Below are positions 2,558-17,374 of a stretch of 64,000 bases of DNA, one piece after another (position 1 is the stretch's first letter; the number at the start of each line of letters is the position of its first letter). Source of the stretch: Patescibacteria group bacterium UBA6489 (GTDB lineage Bacteria > Patescibacteriota > Gracilibacteria > BD1-5 > UBA6164); the NCBI GenBank assembly GCA_002435385.1, contig DJMN01000007.1:10695-74694 (forward strand), written 5' to 3'. The position numbers and the translations under genes are program-made. The notes beneath the pieces are model-generated. The model searched no databases. It saw only the letters and a list, made by a program, of their open reading frames with translations, and was not told the origin of the DNA.

Positions 2558-2660
2558 AGAAATTAGAGAAATAATAATAAAACGAACTGTTAGAAGATTT
2601 ATACTAAGATTAATTGTAGAAAATCTTCTCCTGTGAGTGTATTATTTTTATCTAATTTCT
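2558..2660 (+). repeat. structured ~105-nt intergenic element, copy A (subfamily 1)
   Basis: About 90% identical to 44793-44896. Long outer stem (agaaattagagaaataataata / tattatttttatctaatttct), inner stem agaagattt/aaatcttct, and conserved internal and apical loops. Confidence 0.8.
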
Positions 2661-2697
2661 TGGGTTTATTTAATTTTTGTTCCATAACAAAAAAAAG

Positions 2698-2943
2698 ATG
2701 TCTAAAAAAAATAATAATATAAAAATATTTATTTCTTCTATACTTATAGTATTAGCATTTTTCTTGTGATATCTCTTTAGTGAAAATAAAACAAAATCTA
2801 AAATAGAACAACTAGAAAATAAAGAAAGTTATGTAAGTATAGAAAGAAAAGGGAAGAATGTAAATATAACAAATATAAATGAAAATATTATTTTGTTATT
2901 AGACTGAAAAGAGGTAGAATCAGGGGAAATAACACTAGAATAA
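2698..2943 (+). CDS. small membrane-anchored protein (81 aa)
   Basis: ATG..TAA in frame with two read-through TGA. One N-terminal TM helix. Confidence 0.35.
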
Positions 2944-3021
2944 ACACATTTTTAAAGAAAATAGAAAAAAATTTTGACTTTAGAAAGTTTTTTAATAAGA
3001 TATCTCTCGCATAGTTGATAT

Positions 3022-3098
3022 GCGGGTGTAGCTCAATTGGCTAGAGCATCTGCCTTCCAAGCAGAGGGTTGTGGGTTCGAGTCCCATCACCCGCTCCA
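3022..3098 (+). tRNA. tRNA-Gly (anticodon UCC)
   Basis: Hand-folded cloverleaf: acceptor gcgggtg/cacccgc, anticodon stem tctgc/gcaga, loop cTTCCaa, T-loop ttcgagt, encoded CCA. Confidence 0.9.
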
Positions 3099-3193
3099 TT
3101 TTCTTAGAAGATAGGAGTGAGTAAAAGTAGAAAGTAGAAAGTTTAGAACAGTACTTTCTAATAGAAATCTACTTTTTTTTGTTTATCTTCTTT

Positions 3194-3270
3194 GGGCGTA
3201 TAGCTCAGCTGGTTAGAGCGCACGACTGATAATCGTGAGGTCGGTGGTTCAAGTCCACCTATGCCCACCA
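3194..3270 (+). tRNA. tRNA-Ile (anticodon GAU)
   Basis: Acceptor gggcgta/tatgccc, anticodon stem cacga/tcgtg, loop ctGATaa, T-loop ttcaagt, encoded CCA. Confidence 0.9.
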
Positions 3271-3368
3271 TTTTAAGTTTCTCTTACGATAAGCGATAAC
3301 GAATCGGAAGGAAAGTTACATCGAGTAAACAAATGCGAATGAGATGGAGAGAATAACTATATTTTTTT

Positions 3369-3445
3369 CGGGAACTGGCGCAATCGGCTAGCGCACACGC
3401 TTTGGGAGCGTGGGGTTAAGAGTTCGAGTCTCTTGTTCCCGACCA
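3369..3445 (+). tRNA. tRNA-Pro (anticodon UGG)
   Basis: Acceptor cgggaac/gttcccg, anticodon stem cacgc/gcgtg, loop ttTGGga, T-loop ttcgagt, encoded CCA. Confidence 0.9.
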
Positions 3446-3501
3446 TACATGAAAAACTGATGAACTTCAATATTTCTATTTTGATATTGAAATTTTAATA
3501 A

Positions 3502-3546
3502 AAAGATAAAAGCACTAGATTTAATCTAGTGCTTTTATCTTTTCTA
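3502..3546 (+). terminator. rho-independent terminator after the tRNA cluster
   Basis: Perfect 19-bp stem aaagataaaagcactagat / atctagtgcttttatcttt with a 3-nt loop, followed by a T-run. Confidence 0.7.
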
Positions 3547-3643
3547 GTTTTTCTAAAAAACTTGGCATAATAGAAAAAAAAAGGGGGCTAAAATAAAGAG
3601 TATTTGGTAATATAAAGCCATATACTCTTTAACTTTTAGAACC

Positions 3644-3796
3644 ATGAATAAAAGTTACACAAAAAAATGTAAAAAATTTAGTTCATCAGAAATCAAAAAA
3701 GATTGATTTAAAAGATGAAAACAAAGATATAAATGTAAGTGTTGCTGACATGTATTTCAAAATAAAACAAGGAAAGCAAAGAATAGATATAAATAA
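3644..3796 (+). CDS. zinc-ribbon ORF of the IS (InsA-like N-terminal module), overlaps the transposase frame
   Basis: The 50-aa ORF contains ...GKQRYKCKCCGHVF, the QRYxCxxC motif typical of IS1/IS1595 transposase N-termini. It is offset +1 relative to the DDE frame. Confidence 0.4.
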
Positions 3797-4580
3797 GCTG
3801 TATAATAATTATTGTTTATGAAAACAAACCTATGAACAACTATCAGAAACATACTGAATATCAATAAAAACAGTTCAATCTAAACTAGATAAATATCAGA
3901 TACAAATACCACGAGTAAAAGTTCAAGAAGTAATTTTAGTAATAGATACAACATACTTTGGAGAATTTTGAGTTATGGTATTTAAAGATGCTTACAGAAA
4001 TAAAAATCTGCATATAAATATAGTAGATAGTGAGAATAATACTGATTACAAAAACTGAGTTAGAGAACTAGAAAAAGCTCGATGGATAATTAAAGCTATA
4101 GTTTGTGATTGAAGAAGATGATTACTTACTTGATTTGATAATATTCCTACTCAGATGTGTGATTTTCATCAAGTAGCGATAGTAAGAAGATATATAACTA
4201 AGAAACCTATTTTAGAAGCAAATAAGGCATTAAATTGGATAGCTAGATTACTTGTTAATACAGACAAAGAAACTTTTACTTATTATTTAGATTTATATTG
4301 AGAAAAATACTGAGATTTTCTTAAAGAAAGAAAATTAAATTCTAAGTGAAAACTTGAGTATATTCATAAAAGAACTAAATCTGCTTATTTTTCTTTAAAA
4401 AATAATTTGAAATATCTATTTACTTATTATGATTATATGTGACAGATAGATATTCCAAATACTACTAACTGATTAGAATGAATTTTCGGTCATTTTAAGG
4501 CTAATGTTAGCTTACATAGATGATCAAAAAAAGAGAGAAAAATTAAATTAATTTTATCTCTTTTATACGGAAAAATTTAA
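3750..4580 (+). CDS. DDE transposase (HTH + DDE; IS1/IS1595-like)
   Basis: With TGA=Gly: HTH QTYEQLSETYGISIKTVQSKL, VLVIDTTYFGEFGVMVFKD, IVCDGRRGL and NTTNGLEGIFGHFK (D, D, E region). It has many in-frame TGA, so it is adapted to the host code. The frame is also open upstream to 3633. Confidence 0.65.
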
Positions 4581-4625
4581 ACTTCTCAGCCACTCATTTT
4601 TTTCTATTATGCCAAACAAATCAAC

Positions 4626-4659
4626 AAAAAACTCACTAGTATCACTAGTGAGTTTTTTA
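4626..4659. terminator. bidirectional terminator between the IS and the island
   Basis: aaaaa-actcactagt-atc-actagtgagt-tttttt: perfect 10-bp stem flanked by an A-run and a T-run. Confidence 0.7.
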
Positions 4660-4672
4660 TATTTTACTCCTT

Positions 4673-6289
4673 TTATGTTAAATGTTTGTATGTAGAATAC
4701 TCAACTGCATGACGAGTTTGCTCTTTGCGGGCATCTTCAGCAATCAAGAAATTCACATTTTGCATGACGTCTGAGAGGTTTACATCTTCAGGGGATTCGC
4801 TAATGGCTCTTTCAGCAGCAACCTCAGCAATTGCATCGCGTAGGTTACTATTTGAAAGACCATGAGTTACGTCCAGAAATTTATCTTTTTCAGAGTTGTG
4901 AACCACTATGTCAAAGTGGTCAAACATCCTTTTAATAAATTCCCATTTATCATCCCCATCCAAATCAAGAATTGGAATTTTGATTTCAACACGACGTTGG
5001 AAATCGGTAGGTAAGTTTTGAGGACGTGAGGTATTAAAAACCCAATGGATTTTACCTCTATCACTATCGTCTCCCATCCAATCTAGTAATACTCCCATCA
5101 GTTCACGGTCAGTTTGATGATTATTATCATTTTCTGGATCAGCAAACATTGTGTCTGCTTCGGTTTTGACCAAAATCACCTTTCCAAAGCTTCGTACAAT
5201 CCGCTTCAATTTCTCTACAATTTCAAGGGTTTCTCCATACCATTTAGATTTGAGATTCCCTATTTTTAATGCAGGAAGATGGACTTCATGGATAAAAGCT
5301 TCAAGAATATAATCTTTTCCAACACCAGTTGGCCCAGTAAACATCAAACCTTTCCATATGAGCTTTTTATCACTTAAAAACATTCGTTTTTTCAGTTTAT
5401 CCAGCTCTTTTTTTATTTTTTCATATCCGATTACTGCATCATATCCATGACTAGTTTCCATTACAGAAACTTTTCCAGCCATATTCCTTGATATGATTGT
5501 TGAAACCTCATTACTAATATTTTCCTTAATACTTGAGCTATCTTCCTTGAGAATTGATTTTAAATTCGTCAAAGATATACCAGCAGATAGTAAGGAAATT
5601 TCAGCTATGAGTGCTTGATCAAACTCTCTATGATATTTTTCTGAAAAATATTCAATAAATCTGAGTCTTTCCAGTTGATCAGGGAGATTGAGTTCGATAT
5701 TTTCAAGGGTTGGAATATCTCTGATATCCTCATTGAGCGCGTAGAAATTTTTTGACAGCATAACAACCATGTTATTACTTGATACGAAATCTGAGCTTTC
5801 AAAAATTTCTCGTGCAGAAGAAATAATGAGTTTTTCATCCAAACCCATCTGATTGATGGGTTTGTTTGGAAAAATGATATCAGCATCTTCGATGATGATA
5901 ATCAGGTTTTTTACGTCTTTTTTCAGCTTTTTAAGTCTTGCATACTCCTCTAGAAGGGTTTTAATATGGTGAAGTCCAGAAACAATGTTATACTTTGAAT
6001 CAGCATAATCAAGACCAAAAATGAGCTTGTGTTTTTGTTCCAAGTCTTTATCATATGAGAAAAATTCTTGTTTATGGTAATCGCTTGAATAGCGAAAACC
6101 ACGAGATGGAGAATATAATACAACATGATTATTTTCTCCAAACTTTTGAACAAGAAGTTCACTTGGTTTATTTTCAGATATTTCATTGTTTTGTTCAACG
6201 AGGATAATATCTGAGATATTTCCAGTGACAGTAAAAATGTTACTAATATTTTTACTGTATAGATCAATAAGGTTTTGTAAAAAATTCAT
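4673..6289 (-). CDS. tandem AAA+ ATPase, classic (Vps4/Cdc48-like) clade, with non-canonical Walker motifs
   Basis: 538-aa TGA-free ORF. The C-terminal module has GPTGVGKD, LKSKWYGET, VILVKTEAD and NTSRPQNLPTDFQRRVE. The N-terminal half looks like a degenerate AAA domain (TGNISD, NLIIIIEDAD, IELNLPDQLERL). GGAG lies 8 nt upstream. TAA stop. Confidence 0.75.
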   Translation of the reverse strand: MNFLQNLIDLYSKNISNIFTVTGNISDIILVEQNNEISENKPSELLVQKFGENNHVVLYSPSRGFRYSSDYHKQEFFSYDKDLEQKHKLIFGLDYADSKYNIVSGLHHIKTLLEEYARLKKLKKDVKNLIIIIEDADIIFPNKPINQMGLDEKLIISSAREIFESSDFVSSNNMVVMLSKNFYALNEDIRDIPTLENIELNLPDQLERLRFIEYFSEKYHREFDQALIAEISLLSAGISLTNLKSILKEDSSSIKENISNEVSTIISRNMAGKVSVMETSHGYDAVIGYEKIKKELDKLKKRMFLSDKKLIWKGLMFTGPTGVGKDYILEAFIHEVHLPALKIGNLKSKWYGETLEIVEKLKRIVRSFGKVILVKTEADTMFADPENDNNHQTDRELMGVLLDWMGDDSDRGKIHWVFNTSRPQNLPTDFQRRVEIKIPILDLDGDDKWEFIKRMFDHFDIVVHNSEKDKFLDVTHGLSNSNLRDAIAEVAAERAISESPEDVNLSDVMQNVNFLIAEDARKEQTRHAVEYSTYKHLT

Positions 6290-6305
6290 ATTATTTTCTC
6301 CATTT

Positions 6306-6323
6306 CCCCATCATATGATGGGG
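6306..6323 (-). promoter_or_regulatory. perfect 18-nt palindrome just upstream of the AAA+ RBS
   Basis: ccccatcatatgatgggg. On the minus-strand mRNA it follows a U-run and lies 16 nt before the ATG, so it may be an intercistronic stabiliser or processing hairpin. Confidence 0.4.
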
Positions 6324-6339
6324 AAAAAAAGTGGTTGAG

Positions 6340-7242
6340 TTACTTCGCTGATTTGATGCTATCAGGATGATTGAGACTAAAATCCGATACCGGTTGTCTT
6401 ACATCTTCCTGGAAACACTCATAATCAGCCTTTTTTATCCATGTTTCCGTTTCTGGATGAAACATTCTGTCGCGCATGGATATCTCTTGACCCAAGAGTG
6501 GGTGAGCTTCATCAAAGGCAATTTTTGCACCTATATGCTCACCACCGTCATAATATCTGGTGAGAGCAATAAGTCGTGTTGCCAGTGCTGGAACATCTCC
6601 ATTGAGGTCGTGAGTCACAAACAATACAGTAATATTATGTTCGTGTTGGATTTTAACCAGACTTTTTCTGAGATCCATTTTGGTAATAGGATCGAGAGCA
6701 GAAAATGCTTCATCCATCAAAATCACTTTGGGTTTCATGATTAGTGCCGCAACGATGGCAACCCTCTGTTTTTGACCACCTGAGAGTTCAAAAGGATATT
6801 TATCCGCATGTTTTTCCATGTCAACCATTTTCAGGTATTCCATAGCTTGCTCGCGTACTTGCCTCATATATGGAGTATGAAGTTTGAAAAAGCTAAGTAT
6901 GTCATAGAAAACATTTTGGACGAATGGAGTGGAATCAAGAATAACCCCCTGCATTATATTTTGAACTGCTGTCATATTGGGAAACAAGGAATAGTCTTGT
7001 GGAACATAACCAATATGCCTATTTGGACCTTTTAGCAGATCTTCATCTACATGTATGAGACCTGAGATAGGCTTTTCTACACCAAGGATTTGGCGTAGAA
7101 GTGAAGATTTTCCAGCACCAGATGGACCAACGATACAAACAAGCTCTCCTTCACGAACATCTAGGTTAATATCATGAAGGATTACTTTTTCACTGTAAGT
7201 GACGTTCATGCCTCTTACTTTGATAAGAACATCTTTTTCCAT
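6340..7242 (-). CDS. ABC transporter ATP-binding protein (NitT/TauT family-like)
   Basis: GPSGAGKSS (Walker A), LSGGQKQRVAIVAAL (signature), ILMDEAFSALD (Walker B), VTHD (H-loop), and a C-terminal extension of about 60 aa. TAA stop. Confidence 0.9.
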   Translation of the reverse strand: MEKDVLIKVRGMNVTYSEKVILHDINLDVREGELVCIVGPSGAGKSSLLRQILGVEKPISGLIHVDEDLLKGPNRHIGYVPQDYSLFPNMTAVQNIMQGVILDSTPFVQNVFYDILSFFKLHTPYMRQVREQAMEYLKMVDMEKHADKYPFELSGGQKQRVAIVAALIMKPKVILMDEAFSALDPITKMDLRKSLVKIQHEHNITVLFVTHDLNGDVPALATRLIALTRYYDGGEHIGAKIAFDEAHPLLGQEISMRDRMFHPETETWIKKADYECFQEDVRQPVSDFSLNHPDSIKSAK

Positions 7243-7248
7243 AGATAT

Positions 7249-8166
7249 TTACCCCTTTTGATACCAGCGATACTTATACTTGATGACTAACTCAATACCA
7301 AAATAAAAAATCAAGGCAAGGATCGTAACAATCAAAATATAAGGTATGATGATATCATGTGCCATAAAACGTTTCAGAAGAAAGGTTCGAAAACCTAAGC
7401 CAGCTTGAACCCCAAGTGTTTCAGCAAAATATACACCAACCCAAGCCATAGGGAGACTCATTTGAAGTGATTTCAATATACCTGGGATAATCATTTTAAA
7501 ATTCCCCTTGGCAATTTCGAGTTCACTGGCTCCTTTGGTAAAGAATTGGGTATTCAGATTGAGAGGAATTCCTTTGAGTTGATGTACTATATCTTTAGTT
7601 AAAACAAAAAACAAAAAGATAAAGATGATTACTACTGAAAGTTCAAATCCAGGAGTAAAAGCAACAAAAAGGAGTGGAACAGTTGCAGGCGGAGGGATAA
7701 TACTTGCAATATTTATCGTGGGCATGATTATCGCCTCGATAATTGGAAAAGTTCCTGCAAGGATTCCAAACAGTATTGCTACTGCTGTGGTAATCAAAAT
7801 TCCAGAAACCAAAATATTCAAAGATGATTTTACATCAGTAAAAGTTTTTGGCTCACCAGTTTTTCTATCATTTTTTGTTGAATACTCAACAATCCCATCC
7901 CACATTCTTGAATAAGTAGGTAAAATCTTGTAAAGAGATCGTACCTCTTTTTCATAAGCTGTTAATTCTTGTCTTGGTTTATCAATAGCATTGTTATATA
8001 CTCCATCAATTTCCATAGACTTGAAGTGATACCACGATATAATGAGTACTATTGGTAATAACCCAAGTAGTACTTTTTGCCATAGTAGTAGCTTAGCCCT
8101 ATTACCAATAATATATCTCACTTTTGTTTCTCCGAAAATGAAAAGGTGGAGGTTTAAACCCTCCAC
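7249..8166 (-). CDS. ABC transporter permease (NitT/TauT family-like)
   Basis: Multi-TM ORF 6 nt upstream of the ATPase gene. The ORF-track start at 8166 is GTG and lies inside a hairpin. A likelier start is GTG 8121, preceded by GGAG. Confidence 0.8.
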   Translation of the reverse strand: MEGLNLHLFIFGETKVRYIIGNRAKLLLWQKVLLGLLPIVLIISWYHFKSMEIDGVYNNAIDKPRQELTAYEKEVRSLYKILPTYSRMWDGIVEYSTKNDRKTGEPKTFTDVKSSLNILVSGILITTAVAILFGILAGTFPIIEAIIMPTINIASIIPPPATVPLLFVAFTPGFELSVVIIFIFLFFVLTKDIVHQLKGIPLNLNTQFFTKGASELEIAKGNFKMIIPGILKSLQMSLPMAWVGVYFAETLGVQAGLGFRTFLLKRFMAHDIIIPYILIVTILALIFYFGIELVIKYKYRWYQKG

Positions 8167-8167
8167 C
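8145..8167 (-). terminator. intra-operon attenuator/terminator hairpin between the binding-protein and permease genes
   Basis: ggtggagg-tttaaac-cctccacc (8-bp GC-rich stem). On the minus strand it is followed by cttttcattttc. Confidence 0.5.
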
Positions 8168-8197
8168 TCTTTTATTACACGAAACGATATAACCTAC

Positions 8198-9220
8198 TTA
8201 CTCTACGTCGAATTTGACGGTAACAGGAGCAGACATATCGCCACCTTTGTTTCCATGCAGCTCATAAGCTGCTTTTGACTTGAATTCAGAGAAAAACCCA
8301 TAATCCTTAGCCAGTTTATAGGTATCTTCCTGAAATTTGGGGAAATCCCCTTGGTAGAATGCCATTTCCTCATCAGGAGTAAAGATTTTACTTCCACCCA
8401 ACATAGTTTTGACTTCACCTAGGCTATTCCCAGTTTTATTCATGATCTCCAACATCAATGAATTGTATTCATCACCACGACCAGACAGAATCACGGAAGC
8501 AGTTTTATCCCACAATGCACGCAGGAATTTTGCCTTGTGGTCAAAATCATCCACATCAGTTCCCAATGCAATCATATCGATAATGGTTTTGGGAAATTCA
8601 GCGGATGTTCCAGCCATGTTTCCTTCAGAGCTGTAGGCAGTATCCAAGGCAGGATTCCATGTGACAATATTGTCATATTTCCCTGCCAAATAACCAGACA
8701 GTAACACCGAATCTGCATCCACATGAATCAGGTTGAAATCCTTTTGGGGATCAAGTCCCATGGATTTTGCCTTTTCGATGAAAAGCTGTTCAGAGATGCT
8801 TGCTCGAACCATGTATACATCCTGTCCCTTGATATCATTCAAAGAGCTCCCATTTCTGAGTATAATACCATCATTACCAGCAGAATAATCTTGCAAGACA
8901 ATGGCGGTCATGTTACGACCAGAAAGGGCTAGCATTTGGTCCAGGTTGGTTACTGTTACTGCATCAACAGCAGCAGTACTGGCCATTGCCAGAGACTGTA
9001 GATAGTCGGGTTGATGGTTGAGGCTCAGCTTACATCCGTATTGTCTCTCAATGTCATTATAGAGCCCCGCATTCTGAGCTGCATCAATTGCAACCCAGTT
9101 TATATACAGGCTTGTACTCAAGCTTACATCACAAGTGTTTGCAACGACCGATGATAGTCCCACAACGACCGATGACAATCCCACAACAATAGAAATTACA
9201 ATTTTTACAAATTGTCTCAT
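8198..9220 (-). CDS. periplasmic substrate-binding protein, SsuA/TauA (NMT1-like) family
   Basis: Signal peptide. NDGIILRNGSSLNDIKGQDVYMV...LIHVDADSVLLSGYLAGKYDNIVTWNPAL matches the NitT/TauT binding-protein pattern. AGGAG RBS. TAA stop. Confidence 0.75.
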   Translation of the reverse strand: MRQFVKIVISIVVGLSSVVVGLSSVVANTCDVSLSTSLYINWVAIDAAQNAGLYNDIERQYGCKLSLNHQPDYLQSLAMASTAAVDAVTVTNLDQMLALSGRNMTAIVLQDYSAGNDGIILRNGSSLNDIKGQDVYMVRASISEQLFIEKAKSMGLDPQKDFNLIHVDADSVLLSGYLAGKYDNIVTWNPALDTAYSSEGNMAGTSAEFPKTIIDMIALGTDVDDFDHKAKFLRALWDKTASVILSGRGDEYNSLMLEIMNKTGNSLGEVKTMLGGSKIFTPDEEMAFYQGDFPKFQEDTYKLAKDYGFFSEFKSKAAYELHGNKGGDMSAPVTVKFDVE

Positions 9221-9274
9221 CTTTTTCTCCTACTAGAGTCGTAAAATGTTAATGACCAATACTATAACTATTTT

Positions 9275-9287
9275 GGCTATAATAGCC
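9275..9287. promoter_or_regulatory. 13-bp palindrome (candidate operator) at the predicted transcription start of the ABC operon
   Basis: ggctat-a-atagcc, immediately downstream of the -10 box. Confidence 0.35.
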
Positions 9288-9293
9288 TTCTAT

Positions 9294-9321
9294 ATAATAG
9301 ATGGAAAAAATAAAAAGTCAA
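9294..9321 (-). promoter_or_regulatory. sigma70-type promoter of the ABC/AAA+ operon
   Basis: Minus strand: TTGACT (9321-9316), 16-nt spacer, TATTAT (9299-9294). Confidence 0.5.
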
Positions 9322-9497
9322 TTTTTTTTTCAGTTCTATTGTAGTAATCCTTCTTTTCAGATTTAGCGATAACGGTATCTGGAGTTTTTTTTATGGCTAT
9401 TCAAATCAAAAGGCTGTTTGTGAAGACGGATAATCTTTTCTTCATTGCTCTTCTATATATCAACTTATTGTGGCTTTGTTAAATCATAATTGAAGAT

Positions 9498-9532
9498 AAA
9501 AAAAGGCACATGGGGTTTCCATGTGCCTTTTT
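9498..9532 (-). terminator. rho-independent terminator after the pspA-like gene
   Basis: ggcacatgg-ggttt-ccatgtgcc, followed on the minus strand by a T7 run. Confidence 0.75.
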
Positions 9533-9575
9533 CGCTCTCCTTTTTTTACGATTTTGTTTTGTTTGGGTTTTAGAC

Positions 9576-10376
9576 TTAGACTTTTCGCTCAGTCTCAGAA
9601 ATTTCCTCTACAGGTACGGTAGAACCTGCTTTTTTTGCCTTGTTTGCAGCAGCACGCTCGGCAAGTATTTTCTGGAGTTTATCGTTTGAAGCGGAGCCTT
9701 TGACTCTATTTTTGTAACGCTTCATACGATTATCCATATTGGTACCAGATACCTCCTTAGCTACGCTAAGTTCAGCTTTTTCTTGTGCCAGTTTTTGCCT
9801 TACAGCAGAGACCGCACTCATATCATCAGATTGCATCAGACCAGAACGTTCCGCTTCTACATCCTTCCTAAGACGTACGATTTCCATTTGGGCAACCGTA
9901 CTTTCCGCCTCTTGTTCGAGACCACGGATCTCTTCCGATAGATCCCTCATGACAGCTACATACTCTTCCTTATCAGCATTAAGAGCCTCAATATTTGAGG
10001 CTAATGATTCCTGCTCTGAATCAATTGCTGTTTGGCGAGCATCCAGACGGTTGAAATCTTCCAAAAGTTCAGCATTTTCAGGGTCTTCTTCAATTTCTTG
10101 AATAAGACCTTCGATTGCTTCCCCCAGTTCAGCTTCTTCATCACTGAGCTCTTTCAATTTCAATTCCAGTTGACTTTGCTCCATCTGAATGCGACCAACC
10201 GCCGTTTTGATGTTGTTAAATCTTTCGATTTTATCATCTTTGGCTTGGTTGTACGTAGCCCTGATAGCATCTGGACTAGAAGTCTGGGCTGCCTTGATGC
10301 CTTTGTCCATCTTGTAGGTACCAATGCTCAGTACCCACATAGCACCACGAAAAATAGTTTTGAAAAAACTAGCCAT
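9576..10376 (-). CDS. pspA: PspA/IM30 (phage-shock protein A / Vipp1) family coiled-coil protein
   Basis: 266 aa starting at MASFFKTIFRG (amphipathic N-terminus). SPDAIRATYNQAKDDKIERFNNIKTAVGRIQMEQSQLE followed by long heptad-rich helices. The ATG overlaps the upstream TAG (ATGGCTAG). GGAG RBS. The ORF track extends the ORF to 10421. Confidence 0.6.
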   Translation of the reverse strand: MASFFKTIFRGAMWVLSIGTYKMDKGIKAAQTSSPDAIRATYNQAKDDKIERFNNIKTAVGRIQMEQSQLELKLKELSDEEAELGEAIEGLIQEIEEDPENAELLEDFNRLDARQTAIDSEQESLASNIEALNADKEEYVAVMRDLSEEIRGLEQEAESTVAQMEIVRLRKDVEAERSGLMQSDDMSAVSAVRQKLAQEKAELSVAKEVSGTNMDNRMKRYKNRVKGSASNDKLQKILAERAAANKAKKAGSTVPVEEISETERKV

Positions 10377-11217
10377 GTTTTTCTCCATACTTTTGATAAA
10401 GGTTTTTGAGATTTTGCTCATCGCTCATGCTAAATCGATTGAGTCTTGCTTGAACTTGTTTCGATGCTTCAACAGCTAAAGTAAGCTCATCTGAATTTCG
10501 GTTCACTATATTTTGTGAATCAAAACTTGATGTTGCTGAAGCTAGATTGAGTTCACTGGATTGGAACGACAAGATAAGCTTTTGAAGGACAGAGGTCAGT
10601 TCAGAAATTTTTTGTTCATTACTGTTGTAAATCCCAATATTTTTCTGAATGATAGCTCTGTTTTCTTTATCAGCTTTACTTAATTGCCTTTCTAACTTCG
10701 AAAGACTGGTTTTGCTTTGAATGACTTGTAAATCGGCAATCTCCTTTAAAAGGTTTACGCCTGAATGAAAACCTTGATCGGCTTTCGATTCAAACTCATA
10801 AAAAAGCTCTTCAGATATGATTTCCTGATCCCTGATGGCATGAACAAACGATTGATACGAATTCCAGAGGTCTTTTTTGAGTTTTTCACCACCTTTTAGG
10901 TTGTATAACTCAATTTCATTGAACTCTGCCCTTCGCTTTTCTTTCATCTGTTCTTTATGCCAATCTTGGTATATCAGTGCACCTTCCTTGGCTATTTCTT
11001 CAGCATTAGCTATCCGATACCACCAAAATGATGTACCGAGGATACCAAGAGGAATCAGTGAAAAAATCTGAAAAAAGGATGGTATACTACTCAAAGCTAT
11101 CCCTAGAGGGGTAGCTATAAGGCTGACAAGACCAAAGAGAGTGAGCGGACTACGTTTAAATTTCTCCTTCACATAGTTATGTGCAAACTCTCTTGCTTCC
11201 TCTAAGTAGCTGGACAC
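10369..11217 (-). CDS. 2-TM hairpin membrane protein with long cytoplasmic coiled coil (putative PspA partner)
   Basis: GTG start with GGAG 8 nt upstream. Two hydrophobic helices (LTLFGLVSLIATPLGIALSSIPSFFQIFSLIPLGILGTSFWWY) followed by about 190 aa of helical sequence. Translationally coupled to the pspA-like gene. Confidence 0.6.
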   Translation of the reverse strand: MSSYLEEAREFAHNYVKEKFKRSPLTLFGLVSLIATPLGIALSSIPSFFQIFSLIPLGILGTSFWWYRIANAEEIAKEGALIYQDWHKEQMKEKRRAEFNEIELYNLKGGEKLKKDLWNSYQSFVHAIRDQEIISEELFYEFESKADQGFHSGVNLLKEIADLQVIQSKTSLSKLERQLSKADKENRAIIQKNIGIYNSNEQKISELTSVLQKLILSFQSSELNLASATSSFDSQNIVNRNSDELTLAVEASKQVQARLNRFSMSDEQNLKNLYQKYGEKHG

Positions 11218-11239
11218 ATTGTTTTCTCCGTAAGGTTAG

Positions 11240-12823
11240 TTAGTAGTCAATGAACATAATCTCAACTGTATTGTTATCATTGATGTAGTTTCCATAACTT
11301 TGTCCAGCTTTTTTAGCAGGAGTCATAGTAGAACCAACACCAATTGATGAAATACGATTTGGATCGATTTGGTAGTACTTTTGTAGGTATTTATATACCC
11401 GATCAGATTTTGCCTGAGTCCTTTGTTGTATAACTTCTTCGTTAATTCCGCGTATTTGCGCAGATTTTCCAACGATAGCGATATAATAGTCAAAGTTCCC
11501 AATTTGCTGCTGTGCAAAGCGATCAAGAATTGCTTTCGCATTGTTATCCAATTTTCCATCACGAAGAAATGTTATCTTCAAGTCATCACGAGTGAATTTT
11601 GGATTCCTAATAAGTTTACGCCAAGTCGATTCTTGGAGTTTTGTGTAAACTCTTGCTTCTGCTGCAGGCTTTTTTATGGCATCATCTGGATACGAGTTAA
11701 ACACACCCCTGAGTACTTTGTCATAAACAATGGATCTTGAGTCACCATTTGGAAGCGGTGATTCAGGAATTGCATCCATTTTTATCAGTTTAATGACAAT
11801 AGCATCAATATAGTCTAAGACTTTTCCTTCAGATGAAGAATTCGCCCTGAAAAGTGTGTAACTGTTATCGGCAAGGTTGTAAAAATGAACACCTGCTAAG
11901 TTTTCGGCTATCTCAATTTGATCTCGAGCATCTTTACCTCCACCTTCGGTAAGTTCAATTTCACTATACAGTTCTGTTGGGTTGTTAGCGTAATAGCTAA
12001 CAGACTCATAGTAGCTGTATAGCATGTTTTGTATGCTTTCCGGTTTTTCTAGCAGAACACCCCTGTTTACAACGTATACATCAACGATTCTTGCAAGTTT
12101 CAGTTCATTGGATCCCATTAGCACTTCATAACCTTGTTTTTTAGCTCTTGAAATGTATGGTTCCCATAGTCCTGCTACTTTACATTTATCACTGAGTAAG
12201 TCGGCGTAGGTTTGTTCAATATCTTCATTTGCTTTTCCTTTCAGAAGAATAGGAAGCCCTGTGTCTACTGCCATGCTTCCAAGCATGAAACGAGATGTAT
12301 AACAGGAATCAACTTTTAAAAGTCCTTTTAAATCATTGATGCTTTTGAAGTTTTTCGGGTCTGCAAGTACTGCATCAGATCCTGTTGACCAGGATATTGC
12401 TGCAACAATCACAGGAGCTTTGCTTGTATCTACCCCAAGATGATAGAGCTGCTCCAGATAATCATGAATAGGCATTACTGCAAAATCATATTCACCTGAA
12501 ACAAGTTTTTTCACCCGAGAAGGATAATCTCCTTTATCATCGATAAAGTTGAGAGCTAACGATTTTTTTTGAAGCTCGAATTTGAATCTCTTGCTTCTCA
12601 AAATCGCATATCCGTCATAGCCATCACCAGCACCATTGAGTATTGTTTCCTCTTTAGATGACTGGGTTAGCTTTGCGATTTTTTCCTGCTTTCTATCTTC
12701 ACCAACCTTATCAAAGACGCCTTTGTAGTCCAGAAAAGCAACAATACTGGCAATGATAGCTGTCCAAACAAGTATGGGAAAAATATACTTATTTCGTGAA
12801 GAACCGGTAGATGGCCCATTCAT
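11240..12823 (-). CDS. membrane-anchored SsuA-like binding domain fused to an OmpA-like peptidoglycan-binding domain
   Basis: N-terminal TM (YIFPILVWTAIIASIVAFL). Central NMT1/SsuA-like region (STGSDAVLADPKNFKSINDLKG...GLWEPYISRA). C-terminal OmpA-like region (YYIAIVGKS...RTQAKSDRVYKYLQ...RISSIGVGSTMP). The likely start is the 2nd ATG (12823) after GGAGG. The ORF track starts at 12835. Confidence 0.6.
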   Translation of the reverse strand: MNGPSTGSSRNKYIFPILVWTAIIASIVAFLDYKGVFDKVGEDRKQEKIAKLTQSSKEETILNGAGDGYDGYAILRSKRFKFELQKKSLALNFIDDKGDYPSRVKKLVSGEYDFAVMPIHDYLEQLYHLGVDTSKAPVIVAAISWSTGSDAVLADPKNFKSINDLKGLLKVDSCYTSRFMLGSMAVDTGLPILLKGKANEDIEQTYADLLSDKCKVAGLWEPYISRAKKQGYEVLMGSNELKLARIVDVYVVNRGVLLEKPESIQNMLYSYYESVSYYANNPTELYSEIELTEGGGKDARDQIEIAENLAGVHFYNLADNSYTLFRANSSSEGKVLDYIDAIVIKLIKMDAIPESPLPNGDSRSIVYDKVLRGVFNSYPDDAIKKPAAEARVYTKLQESTWRKLIRNPKFTRDDLKITFLRDGKLDNNAKAILDRFAQQQIGNFDYYIAIVGKSAQIRGINEEVIQQRTQAKSDRVYKYLQKYYQIDPNRISSIGVGSTMTPAKKAGQSYGNYINDNNTVEIMFIDY

Positions 12824-12845
12824 GATTACCTCCATAAAGGGTTGA

Positions 12846-12874
12846 GAAGGACTCCTAAACTTCAGGAGTCCTTC
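12846..12874 (-). promoter_or_regulatory. intercistronic hairpin (11-bp stem)
   Basis: gaaggactcct-aaacttc-aggagtccttc, between the vWA stop and the next start. No U-run follows. Confidence 0.4.
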
Positions 12875-12880
12875 ATGGGG

Positions 12881-13519
12881 TTAAAAGTCTTGCACGACGA
12901 ACTCGGAACTTCCAGGTACCTCAGCCTTGATTGCCTGTTTAAGGGCATTCGTTAGCTGTTGAGTTGATGAAGCATCGGCAAAGTCGGTTACTTGCATCAA
13001 CTTATGCCTAGTAATTCCAAACCCAATGGTCTTTATATTGATTCCACTTGCAATTGCTTCGTCAACGGCGTTAAGCATACGTTCTTCTTTGTCTGCCGCA
13101 CCATCAGTTACAACTACAATGGTATAAAAACCATATCCACCTTGCGATTGTTTCTGCTGATCCAAGTACTGTTTTACAGCCAGGATAGCAGGACCGATAG
13201 GAGTACCCCCACCAGCCTTCAATTGATTTACAGAATTAATAGCATCTTGTTTCTTACCCATTATATTCTGTAGTTGAACAATATATCCATGATTGAGAGC
13301 ATAAATACCAAAATTGTAATCATCTGGTATCCCTTGAATCAGCTGAACCACAGATTCTTTTGCTTGATCAAGCTTGCTTTTCCAAAATATGGATCCCATA
13401 CTTCCAGAATCATCAAAGATAATGACTACGTTCTTTCTCAGGTTAAGGTCTTCTTCCGCTGTGGCCGTAAACGGTAAGTAAAGGATTCCCAAGAAGATAA
13501 AAATCCAAAATTTATTCAT
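12881..13519 (-). CDS. secreted von Willebrand factor type A (vWA) domain protein
   Basis: Signal peptide. Intact MIDAS residues: VVIIFDDSGSMG (DxSxS), GGGTP (T), VVVTDGA (D). GGAGGAG RBS. Ends ...EFVVQDF. Confidence 0.85.
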   Translation of the reverse strand: MNKFWIFIFLGILYLPFTATAEEDLNLRKNVVIIFDDSGSMGSIFWKSKLDQAKESVVQLIQGIPDDYNFGIYALNHGYIVQLQNIMGKKQDAINSVNQLKAGGGTPIGPAILAVKQYLDQQKQSQGGYGFYTIVVVTDGAADKEERMLNAVDEAIASGINIKTIGFGITRHKLMQVTDFADASSTQQLTNALKQAIKAEVPGSSEFVVQDF

Positions 13520-13533
13520 TTTTTATCTCCTCC

Positions 13534-15252
13534 TTAGAAGTCTTGAACGGCTTCAAATGATTGAATTTCCGCGTTATAATTGGTTACGTTAAACTCAACA
13601 CGGATATTGCTATCAAATTCGGCTTGGTTTTTCGGACGTTCGTGAATAGGGCTTCCTGCTCCATCACCATGAACAACGAGTTTATAGGCCTGCAAGTCAA
13701 TCTTGTTTGCGATTGCATAATCAACAATAGCTGCCTTAACAGCATTTGCACGTTCCTTTGAAGTGCGTTCAGCTGCATTTTGGACGTTGTTACGTTCCAT
13801 GGTAATGCGTTGGATAGACATCTGAGCCAGATTGTAGTTGCTTTTCAACACTTTGTTGAGATAAGCTTCCACTTTCATAAGTCCAGTGTTATTTCCACTT
13901 TTCTTAAACTCAATTGCCTTATTCCACCCACGCAGTAGGGATGGATCAACATGACCCACAATATTTAGAACTGCACCAGGATAGGTATTGGCATAGTTTA
14001 TTACTGCATCGAAATTTTTTCCATATTCGCTTACAGTGAAACTATTTTGGTTGGGCTCAAACAGAATTTTGTCTGAAAAAAGTACTTGACCTTGTCCAGA
14101 CTTTTTCAGTTCGGATACTTCTTGCTCAATTCTGGCAGTCACCTCTTTATCTGCCTGTAGGACATGAGCTTCCTGTGATACTTTGACATTCCAGTCAGTC
14201 ACAGGAATATTCAGATCTCCATTAGAAACCAATCCCACTTTTTTGAACTCACCAACGATTCTTGCAACTTTCCGAGGAAAGTTGTTTGGGTTGGTAGGTG
14301 AGTACATAAAGTTGTTACTTATTTCCATGTTATGGAAACGGGCATCGTCACGCAAGCCTTCAGTATCAGCAATATTCTGATGACTTGCGCTTCCGAACAT
14401 AATGGTTGCAGCCTCTTTTACGAGATTACCATCCAATAGTTTGGTTTTTGCAGCACTCAAAAAACCCTCACGGATTTTTTTCAGCTGAGCTTTGTTGTCC
14501 TTTGCCCAATCGGAACGAACCAAGATGATATCCTTGATTGATTCGTTCATTGCCTTGGTTGTAACCAGTATAGACAGACCAGGTATTGCGGCCGTTCCCT
14601 CAGTGAGGGTGGCAGCACTTGGACTGATGACGAAAGCCATATCAATAGATTGATCTTCAGCAATAGCAGTTTCTGGTGAATCATCACCAAAAAGGTTTGG
14701 CAGATATTTGATGTTTATATCCGTAATCGAAAGACCATTCTTTGTCAACAAATCAACCAGCCATCCCATATGGGGGCCGCCATACTGAATGGCAACCGTA
14801 ACGGTTTTACCACCTTTAACTGCAGTAACAAATTCATTGATGTTGTTAAAGCTACGAGTAACCACAACATCCCCACCATTAGAATCGGTCACAGAATGGA
14901 AAATTTCCATTTTAACACCTACCGATTGCAAAGCATCAACAAGCATTGTACCAGAGCCCACCGTTTGGCGAATAAACGGAGTTTTACCGGAGATGACATT
15001 CTTGATTTGCTCAAGAGGATCATCAACCAGCTTTACACCGCCAGGAAACAAGGATATGTTTCCTAATGCCAGAATCATATCTCCCCAGGTAATACCTTGG
15101 TAGATATAATCCTTTGATACGGGTTGGACGGATACTCCTGATACCTGTTGGTAAAAAGGAGTTGGCGAGATGTAATTGACAGCCTTAGCATTTGTCATAC
15201 CTATAAATATTGTTAGTAAAATAACAATACTAAGAATTCCATGTTTTTTCAT
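13534..15252 (-). CDS. secreted SsuA-like binding domain fused to a C-terminal OmpA-like domain
   Basis: Signal peptide MKKHGILSIVILLTIFIGMTNA. Central binding-protein-like fold (TVAIQYGGPHMGWLVDLLTKNGL...). C-terminal ILFEPNQNSF...LNIVGHVD...ERANAVKAAIVDY...GDGAGSP. Ends ...FEAVQDF. Confidence 0.6.
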   Translation of the reverse strand: MKKHGILSIVILLTIFIGMTNAKAVNYISPTPFYQQVSGVSVQPVSKDYIYQGITWGDMILALGNISLFPGGVKLVDDPLEQIKNVISGKTPFIRQTVGSGTMLVDALQSVGVKMEIFHSVTDSNGGDVVVTRSFNNINEFVTAVKGGKTVTVAIQYGGPHMGWLVDLLTKNGLSITDINIKYLPNLFGDDSPETAIAEDQSIDMAFVISPSAATLTEGTAAIPGLSILVTTKAMNESIKDIILVRSDWAKDNKAQLKKIREGFLSAAKTKLLDGNLVKEAATIMFGSASHQNIADTEGLRDDARFHNMEISNNFMYSPTNPNNFPRKVARIVGEFKKVGLVSNGDLNIPVTDWNVKVSQEAHVLQADKEVTARIEQEVSELKKSGQGQVLFSDKILFEPNQNSFTVSEYGKNFDAVINYANTYPGAVLNIVGHVDPSLLRGWNKAIEFKKSGNNTGLMKVEAYLNKVLKSNYNLAQMSIQRITMERNNVQNAAERTSKERANAVKAAIVDYAIANKIDLQAYKLVVHGDGAGSPIHERPKNQAEFDSNIRVEFNVTNYNAEIQSFEAVQDF

Positions 15253-15332
15253 GGTTGTTTTCTCCAGTTTAAAATTTCTGAGAATGTTAACGAGCGTACT
15301 AAGATACTAAGGATTATTTCTTAGATTTTTAA

Positions 15333-15360
15333 AATATAAAAAATAAATACAAAATGTCAA
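15333..15360 (-). promoter_or_regulatory. sigma70-type promoter of the five-gene pspA module
   Basis: Minus strand: TTGACA (15360-15355), 16-nt spacer, TATATT (15338-15333), about 80 nt upstream of ATG 15252. Confidence 0.5.
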
Positions 15361-15660
15361 GATAAAATGGGAAGAATTTTTCACGAAATGCAACTTTTAC
15401 ATTTTTATATGTCAATTAAACTCCTCTATCTCAGTTCTAATCCTCTACTATATGACTTACTTGAACAAGAACATAAATTTCTCATGATTTTTTTGAGATG
15501 AATATGAAGAGGAATTTAATGGCGAGTGATGGTTTTTCTATAAAGAAATACTTGATTTTACAATTGAGAGATTTGATCCTCATATGCATAAATGTATACA
15601 AAAATTGAAATTAAAATCTAATTTTTAAATTTTCACAAAAATCACTATTGAAAAATTAGA

Positions 15661-15696
15661 AAAATAACTACAAAATATTTATCTTGTAGTTATTTT
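15661..15696. terminator. orphan terminator-like hairpin in the noncoding tract
   Basis: aaaataactacaa-aatatttatc-ttgtagttatttt. Confidence 0.4.
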
Positions 15697-15749
15697 TTGA
15701 TTCCAAAAATTTTTAAATATAGTACAATTATATAATTAAAAAAAATAAA

Positions 15750-15989
15750 ATGGATAATATTAATAAATTTTCTGTTGCTGATATAATAAACATAATACAT
15801 CAGATAATTATTATATTATATTTATTATATTCACTAAAGATAATCTATAAATACTTTAAGTATAATAAAAAACGAAATTTAATATGATTAATAAAAAAGT
15901 TAGCCATAGTTTTCCTATACTATGTACCAGTTTCTATATTATTTTCAATTATTGAATGGTGGTTATTATCTTGTAGTATGTGTATATAG
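15750..15989 (+). CDS. possible small membrane protein (79 aa)
   Basis: ATG..TAG in frame with one read-through TGA. Hydrophobic. No homology recognised. Lies in an otherwise noncoding AT-rich tract. Confidence 0.2.
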
Positions 15990-16745
15990 ATTTTTCCATA
16001 TTAACTGATAACAAAAAATAGAAAATATTCTATAAAGAATCTTTTCAAATTAAAAATTTCGTGAAACAATTTCAGAATTATTACTAAATTTTCCTACTAA
16101 AATAATAAAAAAAATATTTTACATAATAACTATATACTTAACTAAGTTTTTACCCAATTTTTGATGTTCAGAACTTTTGATCATAGGTGTTCACTATATT
16201 TAATCATTATAGTCAATAAAATAATTAGCATTGTCATATTTTGCAGGTATAATATTTTTAATATCAGTATAAATCACAATAAAAAAAGTCAGAGTAAATT
16301 ATTTTCAATTTTTTGACCTTTTTTATTATTAAAAATATTGCATACTAGAAATAATTGGCATTTTTGACTATAGAAAAATTTATTCTATCAATATTCCGAC
16401 TTTCACGATTTTACAAAACAAAAAAATAATTCATATTTAAGGTATGTAATTCAAAATATTCTTAGGAGTTTTAGAGTTTATTACTTGAGATTGAAAACTC
16501 TAAATCATATATTCTCAACTCCTTATAGTGTTTTAATTTGATTATTCCAGTATTGTAGCTTCTTTTCTTATCTCAAAGGAGGAAAATTCAAGAGATAAGG
16601 GATAATTATATGGAGAGTTTAATTTTAAGTACTAAAAAATTAGAAAAAATTATAAGACAAAACTATTTATTGATTTTTCTTGAAAAATAAGATAAAATAA
16701 CATTGAGATAAAAAAGATTTATTATCATTTATAATACACAAAAAG

Positions 16746-17300
16746 ATGTTAAACAGAGCATTAAAAATTCTGGTATATACTAACTCAATGACACTATTAG
16801 CAGCTGCAATGTTAGCTCCAATTTATGCAATATTTGTTGAAGAAGTTGGATGAGATCTAATGGATGCAAGTATTGCTGGAGGTATATTTGCTTTAGTTGC
16901 AGGTATAACAACAATAATAGCTGGTAGATGGACTGATAAAATAAAGGAAAAGAAATTAATTATTATCCTTTGATATATTATCATGGGAATAGGTTTCTTA
17001 TTATATTTTTGGGTAGATTCAGTTATTTTCTTATTTATAGTCCAGTCTATTATTTGACTTGGAGAAGCTGTTTATTCTCCAGCATTTGATGCTCTATTCT
17101 CTAAAAATCTTGATAAAAATAAATCTGCCACTCAATGGTGAGCTTGGGAATCAACCTTCTATTTTACAACAGCAATATGAGCAGTTAGTGGTGGATGACT
17201 TGTTACCTTATTTGGTTTTCAAGCTTTATTTGTAACAATGGCTATAATGTGTTTTGGTAGTGCGTTATATCTTCTATTCTTAAAACAAGGAGAGATATAA
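16746..17300 (+). CDS. half-size (6-TM) MFS-type transporter-like protein (184 aa)
   Basis: With TGA=Gly: AGRWTDKIKEKK, GLGEAVYSPAFDALFSK, and six hydrophobic segments. Only about half the length of a canonical MFS protein. Confidence 0.5.
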
Positions 17301-17374
17301 AAGTTATTAAAAAAGATGTTGTAAAATAATCTAAATTAAATATATTTAATTTAGATTATTTTTAATTTTTACAT

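Follow-up and report, generated by a model that had tools for sequence, protein, structure and literature searches.

We analysed a stretch of 64,000 nt (the window) of contig DJMN01000007.1 from Patescibacteria group bacterium UBA6489 (positions 10,695 to 74,694 of the forward strand), in which UGA is read as glycine (code 25). The window contains an island of nine consecutive minus-strand open reading frames (ORFs; 4673-15252, 3,361 codons), here called g1 to g9 in the order of transcription, and none of them has an in-frame TGA. The original prediction, which was made from the letters alone, explained this island as a recent acquisition from a standard-code, probably diderm donor. According to our analysis, the island is real and foreign and came late to its present site. 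Nevertheless, we propose, with a probability of roughly 55%, that it is a horizontally derived operon from which TGA is excluded in a frame-specific manner by purifying selection, and that its freedom from TGA is not simply due to youth. Purifying selection on the island genes is favoured because the exclusion of TGA outlasts long residence, amelioration of codon usage and host speciation.

The genes around the island define the code of the host. As a "native" reference set, we used the 43 ORFs that flank the island in the window. These ORFs comprise 13,678 codons and contain 665 TGA and 255 GGN: TGA accounts for 72% of the glycine codons and appears once per 21 codons. There is no native ORF without TGA (0/43), and all native ORFs stop with TAA or TAG. 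In FolD, in-frame TGA codons occupy the positions of invariant glycines, such as in the motifs VIDVG and GKSxIVGKP. Therefore, the host uses code 25. The named matches of FolD included CP042461 (60%) and Gracilibacteria CG2_30_37_12 (54%), and the host is probably a Gracilibacterium.

The nine island ORFs contain 204 GGN and 0 TGA. At the native TGA share, the probability of this outcome is ~1e-114. The island also differs from the native genes in its G+C content (GC; 38.7% vs 26.3%) and in GC at the third codon position (GC3; 0.33 vs 0.16), and 1-kb windows have a GC of 34-42% within the island against 19-33% elsewhere. In tetranucleotide composition, the island chunks lie at a distance of 0.47-0.56 from native DNA, and all remaining 5-kb chunks have distances of 0.12-0.19. 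Codon usage of the island correlates less well with its own host (r = 0.64) than with a copy from Campylobacterota (r = 0.81). Eight of the nine genes stop with TAA and one with TAG. When the starts of g5 (10376) and g7 (GTG at 8124) are corrected, a GGAG-type Shine-Dalgarno site precedes 8/9 island genes; only 1/43 native genes has such a site. Thus, what had been claimed on composition was borne out: nine TGA-free minus-strand ORFs among TGA-rich native genes, the higher GC, the Shine-Dalgarno sites on eight genes and stops of the TAA or TAG type only. The tetranucleotide and codon-usage checks suggested at that time likewise set the island apart.

To place the island among its relatives, we collected the g1 family, which has 23 proteins in a collection of 5.8 billion proteins. 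The order of the nine genes is conserved among the cassette relatives. Standard-code copies occur in the diderm groups Sulfurimonadaceae, Sulfurovum, Campylobacterales and SAR324, and in a marine subsurface biofilm metagenome-assembled genome (MAG). In these copies, 17/50 stops (34%) are TGA, ATGA-type gene overlaps are present and the GC is about 39-44%. The SAR324 copy (MAG contig JANQJU010000033.1, 10001-17470) has g1-g5 and the AAA+ gene and is without the three ABC-transporter genes, so that the ABC module is an add-on to a six-gene core. The closest copies overall, with 61-65% amino-acid identity, are located in two other UGA-recoded genomes, L003 and L013. The L003 copy lies in the middle of a 724-kb contig of GCA_041156785.1, where the flanking genes for DnaE and ComEC have 19 and 25 TGA, respectively; in this host, the TGA share of individual genes ranges from about 12% (EF-P) to 83% (ComEC). 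L013 is a Logan contig, in which the flanking HolA gene has TGA at a conserved glycine. A search for the nearest taxa had been proposed as a check. The best matches of all nine proteins are in L003 and L013 (56-74%, and 30-32% for g5), and these copies are also TGA-free. The best standard-code relative shows 46-52% identity over the whole cassette, and g1 of a further copy, L014 (SRR26541461), which we could assign to neither code, shows 58%. Thus, homologous cassettes are present in genomes of both codes at identities of up to 58%. A metagenome scan with a g1 profile yielded further standard-code relatives only and no additional recoded copies. Of the sample accessions looked for in the literature, SRR2544004 turned up in a study of a deep-subsurface biofilm, and SRR5324699, GCA_041156785, SRR10097245 and SRR26541461 were not found.

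Neighbour-joining trees of 10-11 taxa were constructed from concatenated alignments of 1,751 and 3,216 columns. In these trees, the copies of the window, L013 and L003 group together as a clade (100% bootstrap support), and L014 and then Sulfurovum branch next to it. When the tree was rooted on a 25%-identical cassette from another recoded genome (L025, described below), the recoded clade was still derived and nested in a Campylobacterota grade. The cassette tree conflicts with the taxonomy of the hosts, since the recoded copies fall among Sulfurovum, Sulfurimonadaceae and SAR324. Because the recoded clade is nested among standard-code copies, also when rooted, transfer from standard-code diderm bacteria to recoded bacteria would be the moderately better-supported direction on these alignments. 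The original prediction had named a locus conserved and best-hitting within the same lineage as one finding that would speak against recent import; the recoded clade comes close to this.

Among the three recoded copies, 55-64% of the conserved four-fold sites and 56-60% of the conserved glycine sites have different codons; namely, their synonymous sites are essentially saturated. Nevertheless, TGA is found at 0/593 glycine codons and at 0/27 stops. The recoded copies stop at the same positions as their standard-code homologues, with TAA or TAG, and C-terminal alignments of the nine genes revealed no read-through fossils. We then counted TGA trinucleotides in frames 0, 1 and 2: the numbers are 0, 82 and 191 in the window, 0, 41 and 195 in L013, and 0, 56 and 179 in L003. 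Avoidance of TGA at the sequence level (for example, as a nuclease site) is ruled out by the abundant TGA in frames 1 and 2. Because TGA is common in these two frames, the exclusion acts at the level of translation, as it does for a stop codon.

The left flank of L013 (MutS, HolA and a mechanosensitive-channel gene) led us to three syntenic loci, L025 (labelled Patescibacteria UBA6164), L027 and L028, all from recoded genomes. L025 and L028 share the order RNaseIII-YggT-FtsW-MutS-HolA-mechanosensitive channel-island. In each genome, the island that follows the channel gene is TGA-free (nearly so in L027), has Shine-Dalgarno sites and has a GC above that of its flanks. The slot is occupied by a window-type cassette in L013, by a distant homologue in L025 and L028, and by another gene set, without sequence kinship to the window cassette, in L027. 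Because varied cassettes follow the channel gene, the locus is a hotspot of cassette exchange.

The L025/L028 island contains g1′, VWA′ and g3′, which are 23-28% identical to the window cassette, and a gene for a TelA protein. Between L025 and L028, the identities are 69% for g1′, 60% for VWA′ and 54% for the channel, and those of the neighbouring host genes are 59-84%. Synonymous divergence is 0.43-0.63 in the island genes and 0.38-0.57 in the host genes. Since these values are alike, the L025/L028 island was inherited together with the genome. Its codon usage for the other amino acids has ameliorated towards that of its own host (r = 0.82-0.88). We therefore compared the conserved glycine sites of the two genomes. 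In the host genes (n = 77), TGA is present in both genomes at 54 sites, and 17 sites (22%) are a mixture of TGA and GGN. In the island genes, GGN is present in both genomes at 61/61 sites. With a two-state model fitted to the host genes, the probability of 61/61 is ~1e-26, and it is 2e-3 even at a tenfold slower rate. Recency cannot explain this result: TGA is kept out of the L025/L028 island.

The channel gene at the hotspot (L025, 8001-9473; L028, 2797-4026) has a TGA-free body, and codon 408 is TGA in both genomes. This sole TGA of the island coincides with the end of the homologues, and the frame continues for another 83 codons in L025 and 2 in L028 up to a TAA or TAG. It resembles a stop of the standard code that has been conserved as a fossil and is now translated through. 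The channel family has 7 members in the collection, all of them without TGA in the body, and all four members examined for context (4/4) are at the hotspot locus in recoded genomes. The separate gene set of L027 (749-7047) encodes proteins of 433 aa and 357 aa, a 647-aa AAA+ ATPase, a 451-aa DUF6638 protein (with 2 TGA) and a 199-aa protein.

The surroundings of the window island contain the following features.

3022-3445, plus strand: native cluster of tRNA-Gly(UCC), tRNA-Ile(GAU) and tRNA-Pro(UGG) (ARAGORN and Rfam); flank, outside the island
3562-4615, plus strand: insertion sequence (IS) in the host code, with 28-nt inverted repeats at 3562-3589 and 4588-4615
15361-16745, no strand: AT-rich non-coding tract on the right of the island, ~21% GC

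Both edges are as they had been described, with a host-code IS and three tRNAs on the left and an AT-rich non-coding tract of 1.5 kb on the right. The IS has one ORF (3750-4580; 276 codons), which is transposase-like, contains 14 in-frame TGA and has no Pfam match. It is a single copy in the window and ends 10 bp from the island terminator. The IS may have had a role in placing the island, and an IS in the host code at this distance hints at mobilisation within recoded bacteria. On the right, the region 15253-16745 has a GC of 20.6% and no ORF above 79 aa. The next gene (16746-17300; 184 codons) encodes a major facilitator superfamily (MFS) protein in the host code with 6 in-frame TGA, and it covers only the N-terminal half of the Pfam model. 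This gene may be truncated, which would suggest disruption by the island or the tract. Neither flanking direct repeats nor tRNA-derived att sites were found around the island.

A comparison with sister genomes had been recommended as a check. In the closest genome found (GCA_942490775.1, 25.8% GC; FolD 77% identical), the corresponding locus has a 332-aa gene, folD, a 74-aa ORF and the tRNA-Gly/Ile/Pro cluster, followed by unrelated genes; both the IS and the island are absent. A g1 homologue from this genome was not found in the 5.8-billion-protein collection either. Because the tRNA cluster is shared with the sister flank, it is native, and the idea that tRNA-Gly(UCC) was part of the import was rejected. 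The sister locus shows that the island arrived, or that the sister lost it, after the split of the two genomes. Because the island is absent in the sister and its codon usage is nearer to that of the Campylobacterota copy than to that of its host, we regard it as a late arrival at the present site. The island may have come immediately from either a standard-code bacterium or another recoded genome.

The junctions are reproduced in an independent Logan contig (SRR5324699; 14,764 bp), which corresponds to window positions 2589-17352 with 100% identity, crosses both junctions and includes host-code genes on either side (~2 kb of host-code DNA each). We therefore consider it scarcely credible that a standard-code contig was fused to a recoded genome by misassembly or binning. 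The left junction does coincide exactly with the end of the IS, and repeats are typical places of misjoins. However, both junctions recur at 100% identity, the right junction is unique sequence leading into a gene with 6 in-frame TGA, and such cassettes sit between TGA-rich genes in four other assemblies, in one of them in the middle of a 724-kb contig.

A single recent import directly from a standard-code diderm donor, in which the absence of TGA, the Shine-Dalgarno sites and the GC are simply donor features that have not been erased, is the alternative that we take most seriously, although we judge it rather unlikely. It agrees with the empty syntenic site in the sister, with the GC3 of 0.33 against 0.16 and the codon usage nearer to Campylobacterota than to the host, with the standard-code homologues of ~39-44% GC in diderm lineages, and with the documented horizontal transfer into code-25 bacteria (PMC8080830). 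The original prediction is thus partly supported: the island is foreign to its locus, as seen from its absence in the sister, its codon usage and its standard-code diderm homologues, but neither recency nor a direct standard-code donor is shown by the absence of TGA, the Shine-Dalgarno sites or the higher GC. The best standard-code cassette is just 46-52% identical (58% for g1 of L014) and the nearest copies are in recoded genomes. TGA stops number 0/27 in the recoded clade against 34% in the standard-code copies, and we detected neither flanking DNA of a donor nor an integrase nor direct repeats at the flanks. Moreover, freedom from TGA, Shine-Dalgarno sites and higher GC had been read as marks of recency, but related islands keep these same "donor-like" features through co-divergence with their hosts, so they have no value for dating. 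A second alternative is that one standard-code clade, for example the physical hosts of these epibionts, was the source of three independent captures, so that the cassettes spent most of their history under the standard code. This idea, which we consider unlikely, would account for three monophyletic copies being found in three genomic contexts in hosts of ~25%, 34% and 19% GC, and for all three being TGA-free at saturated divergence. L014, the sister of the clade, ends g4 with TGA in an ATGA overlap and may be standard-code, and the window-type cassette of L013 sits in a slot that other types occupy in L025, L028 and L027, which points to exchange at the locus. On the other hand, three donors would have to be unsampled while all three recipients are sampled among 5.8 billion proteins. 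Repeated capture also leaves unexplained the L025/L028 island, which is syntenic, co-diverged and ameliorated and is still TGA-free, as well as the TGA-free channel gene (7/7 homologues, and 4/4 contexts at one recoded locus).

It is improbable, in our view, that the operon is an old native one of Gracilibacteria or the candidate phyla radiation (CPR) that was passed to Campylobacterota, with selection at the level of expression disfavouring TGA and favouring Shine-Dalgarno sites and GC-richer codons in induced stress genes. OGG56892.1, a published example of the operon type, may come from a CPR genome, which we presume from its accession prefix only. L025-type islands are inherited vertically, and the TGA share of 12% (EF-P) to 83% (ComEC) in the L003 host hints at gene-specific avoidance. 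These points are opposed by the position of the recoded clade within the Campylobacterota grade when the L025 cassette is the outgroup, by the absence of the island from the sister genome, and by a large pilin-like native gene of the window, presumably well expressed, which has 39 TGA vs 15 GGN. In addition, 0/593 glycine codons far exceeds ordinary codon bias, in a comparison that contains no ribosomal-protein-type genes. Expression-linked codon selection is nevertheless a possible agent of TGA exclusion. Several points weigh against our own proposal of a horizontally derived operon under frame-specific selection. We have no closely related pair of hosts with a window-type cassette, so that selection on the window copy would follow by analogy with L025/L028 and from a saturated TGA-free clade. 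The window copy itself is unameliorated (GC3 0.33 vs 0.16; r = 0.64 with the host), which recency alone would explain, and three independent, fairly recent captures from an unsampled standard-code clade would also give TGA-free monophyly. For L025/L028, vertical inheritance is assumed on the grounds of synteny and similar divergence, and the model is a simple one with two states. The trees were built by neighbour joining with 10-11 taxa, and the rooting via a 25%-identical outgroup has 83% support. The assignment of g5 as PspA comes from a single-sequence model with weak Foldseek E-values, and g4 matched no family. Finally, any mechanism for selection against a synonymous codon is hypothetical.

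Under the proposal of long-term exclusion, the most likely origin of the cassette lineage in recoded bacteria is a transfer from standard-code diderm bacteria that resembled Campylobacterota. Genes from a standard-code donor have no sense TGA and are therefore read correctly under code 25. After the acquisition, frame-specific purifying selection would act against sense TGA in envelope operons, and the Shine-Dalgarno sites in these operons would probably be under selection, too. As for the reason, a speculative and rather doubtful idea is that code-25 bacteria keep a small set of envelope-stress and transport operons readable in the standard code for times or places in which UGA is not read as glycine. 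In one version, the genes would work in the recoded cell when UGA decoding is disabled, for example by a phage release factor, by an attack on tRNA-Gly(UCA) or in a life stage with low tRNA-Gly(UCA). In the other version, they would be expressed in, or regularly swapped with, the standard-code diderm host cell of the epibiont. The traits of such a standard-code-readable class are the absence of sense UGA, a Shine-Dalgarno lead and, in some members, a fossil UGA stop. If this idea is true, UGA-free islands would be a functional class and not a by-product of horizontal transfer.

The island consists of exactly one operon of ~10.7 kb, from a promoter near 15360 to a terminator near 4624, and has no further cargo. 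Its elements are as follows.

15253-15360, minus strand: leader and promoter of the operon, with the best sigma-70-like site of the region (TTGACA-16-TATATT, 15360-15333)
15294-15275, minus strand: conserved leader motif CTCGTTAACATTCTCAGAAA, upstream of g1 in the window, L013, L003 and L014
13534-15252, minus strand: g1, 572 aa, secreted binding-protein-like protein with an OmpA-like peptidoglycan-binding domain (profile and PDB matches)
12881-13519, minus strand: g2, secreted VWA-domain protein (Pfam VWA, 2e-13)
11240-12835, minus strand: g3, 531 aa, membrane-anchored, with a binding-protein-like domain and an OmpA-like C-terminus (matches of homologues)
10369-11217, minus strand: g4, 282 aa, N-terminal hydrophobic segments and a helical remainder (from the sequence)
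9576-10376, minus strand: g5, 266 aa, helical protein with a predicted PspA/Vipp1 (ESCRT-III)-like fold (AlphaFold2 and Foldseek)
9221-9575, minus strand: g5-g6 spacer, with a terminator-like hairpin at ~9497-9531 and a promoter-like TTGACT-16-TATTAT at 9321-9294
8198-9220, minus strand: g6, secreted or lipoprotein-like substrate-binding protein (NCBIfam)
7249-8124, minus strand: g7, ABC permease of the NitT/TauT (TauC/SsuC/NtrB-like) type (Pfam BPD_transp_1; NCBIfam SaoP, TauC and NtrB)
6340-7242, minus strand: g8, ABC transporter ATPase (Pfam ABC_tran, 3e-34)
4673-6289, minus strand: g9, 538 aa, AAA+ ATPase of the classical clade (Cdc48/Vps4/Msp1-like) at residues ~313-520 (Pfam AAA, 4e-14)
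4624-4660, minus strand: terminator-like hairpin of the operon, a 15-17-bp stem followed by a T run, directly 3′ of the g9 stop

The predicted role of the operon is ATP-driven membrane maintenance or remodelling that is coupled to solute uptake at the cell envelope. The OmpA-like domain of g1 matched Omp38 in a PDB profile search (4.5e-5), and NMT1 is present in distant homologues of g1, whose annotated names are nitrate/sulfonate binding protein or OmpA-like protein. For g3, NCBIfam SsuA_fam was matched at 1e-5 and the homologues match Pfam OmpA, OpuAC and NMT1_2; a PDB sequence search with g3 gave nothing significant. No family match and no significant PDB match was obtained for g4, and its AlphaFold2 model, with a predicted local distance difference test (pLDDT) value of 50, was unusable; g4 is a candidate for the "Snf7 homologue with a TM segment" (TM, transmembrane) of the published operon described below. 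The start of g5 was corrected to 10376, downstream of GGAGAAAAAC, which results in an 8-nt overlap with the g4 stop. Its single-sequence AlphaFold2 model (pLDDT 77) is a long helical hairpin with two further helices, and the top Foldseek matches in PDB were Vipp1 and PspA (weak E = 8e-3, probability 1.0, TM-score ~0.54); Pfam PspA_IM30 and Snf7 were not matched by g5, and its PDB sequence search gave nothing significant. NCBIfam TIGR03427 (urea-type binding protein) matched g6 at 1e-38, yet below the cut-off. The g7 ORF extends to 8166, and its start is probably the GTG at 8124 after GGAG. For g8, the matches to NCBIfam importer-type ATPases were all under the cut-off. In a PDB profile search, g9 matched Afg2, VAT, p97, katanin and Msp1 at 1e-17 to 1e-11, and its N-terminal 300 residues had no matches. 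As had been claimed, integrase and phage genes are absent: no integrase, phage or defence-system protein was matched among the island proteins in Pfam and PADLOC. A role as an anti-phage defence system was rejected, since PADLOC gave just generic P-loop or ABC-type matches. A cluster look-up of the island proteins returned no names.

This operon type is already known. Ravi et al. (2024, mSystems, PMC11237479, section 18) predicted by comparative genomics an operon of PspA, a membrane-anchored Snf7 homologue, an AAA+ ATPase, an ABC ATPase, a permease and PBPb-OmpA, and read it as ATP-dependent membrane remodelling linked to solute transport. The island resembles it in having a protein with a predicted PspA/ESCRT-III-like fold, a presumably helical protein with putative membrane segments, an AAA+ protein of ~540 aa, an ABC ATPase, a permease, and proteins predicted to bind both solute and peptidoglycan. 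In contrast, the island adds a VWA protein and a separate binding protein, the PspA call for g5 is by fold only, and Snf7 is just a candidate for g4. The AAA+ protein of PMC11237479 has two AAA+ domains, of which the N-terminal one is inactive; in g9, the C-terminal domain was recognised. Codon usage and recoded hosts are not discussed in that report.

Horizontal transfer into code-25 bacteria is also known. For example, 126 horizontally acquired genes were described in code-25 Vampirococcus lugosii (PMC8080830), so that the altered code is a weaker barrier to exchange than the original prediction had stated. In both cases, standard-code genes were imported into a UGA=Gly genome. Long-term TGA-free retention was not reported for V. 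lugosii, whereas here it persists past amelioration and host speciation. The closest precedent for genes that stay readable without UGA decoding as glycine are phages compatible with codes 11 and 25, which were predicted for Gracilibacteria (2023, mBio, PMC10746230), and the integrated prophages in that study are all TGA-rich. Those compatible elements resemble the island in that they are associated with UGA=Gly, have no in-frame TGA and non-TGA stops, and read the same under both codes; unlike them, the island is a chromosomal operon of cellular genes without phage genes, and a related type is vertically inherited. Classical tRNA-adjacent genomic islands share the atypical composition, the patchy distribution, and the tRNA and IS neighbours. 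However, the present island has no integrase and no tRNA 3′-end repeats, the IS lies between the tRNA and the island, and there is one operon only. The TTA/bldA system of Streptomyces is a codon-restricted regulon and is useful as an analogy only. There, too, a single codon is restricted to, or kept out of, a functional group of genes, so that their translation depends on one tRNA or is independent of it. The polarity is reversed here, since a common codon is excluded from few genes, and regulation of tRNA-Gly(UCA) is hypothetical. In our literature search, we found no description of UGA-free chromosomal operons, in part vertically inherited, from recoded bacteria.

Discussions of codon reassignment usually treat it as a barrier or firewall against gene exchange, and genes that lack the reassigned codon are usually taken for recent imports. 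In the present case, the reassigned codon supplies 72-87% of native glycines and is wholly and frame-specifically absent from particular chromosomal operons. If the proposed selection is real, freedom from TGA would be no clock for horizontal transfer in recoded lineages. A selective force on a nominally synonymous codon would also make the fidelity, regulation and vulnerability of UGA decoding testable in Gracilibacteria and Absconditabacteria, and the Campylobacterota affinity of the cassette would be a lead to the hosts of these uncultivated epibionts.

Several minor observations were made on the operon. Recoded copies have a g5-g6 spacer of 214-893 bp; its length is 69 bp in L014 and 0-17 bp in standard-code cassettes. 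In L013, this spacer contains two small type IV pilin-like genes (8794-9685) with the N-terminal methylation motif and their own terminators, and L025 has a 40%-identical pilin-like gene at the equivalent position after the TelA gene. In the window and L003, the spacer has no remnant of a pilin gene, just a terminator and a promoter; a shared remnant would have proved that the ancestor of the three copies resided in a recoded genome. The window spacer has two occurrences of the motif AGCCA(A/C)AATA(A)GTT, and L013 has one upstream of g6 (9600-9680); the motif is a candidate operator for the ABC half of the operon. The C-termini of g1 (13534-13542) and g2 (12881-12889) are both (V/A)QDF followed by the stop, and this ending is kept in all homologues, including that of SAR324; it may serve as a signal for sorting or recognition at the C-terminus. 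The signal peptide of g6 contains a 21-nt in-frame tandem duplication (9142-9183; 90% identical), which repeats VVGLSSV.

Two further observations concern the host genomes. A tRNA of the tRNA-Gly(UCA) type was not found within the 64-kb window. In the sister genome (GCA_942490775.1), ARAGORN called a "tRNA-SeC (tca)" at 13927-14005 of the extracted locus; since UGA means glycine in this genome, the called gene most likely encodes the tRNA-Gly(UCA) for the reassigned codon. Elsewhere in the window, the genes at 36478-37452 and 38226-39293 are neighbouring, clearly similar paralogues, the second of which has a Thr/Pro/Asn-rich insert; we take them to resemble YceG/MltG.

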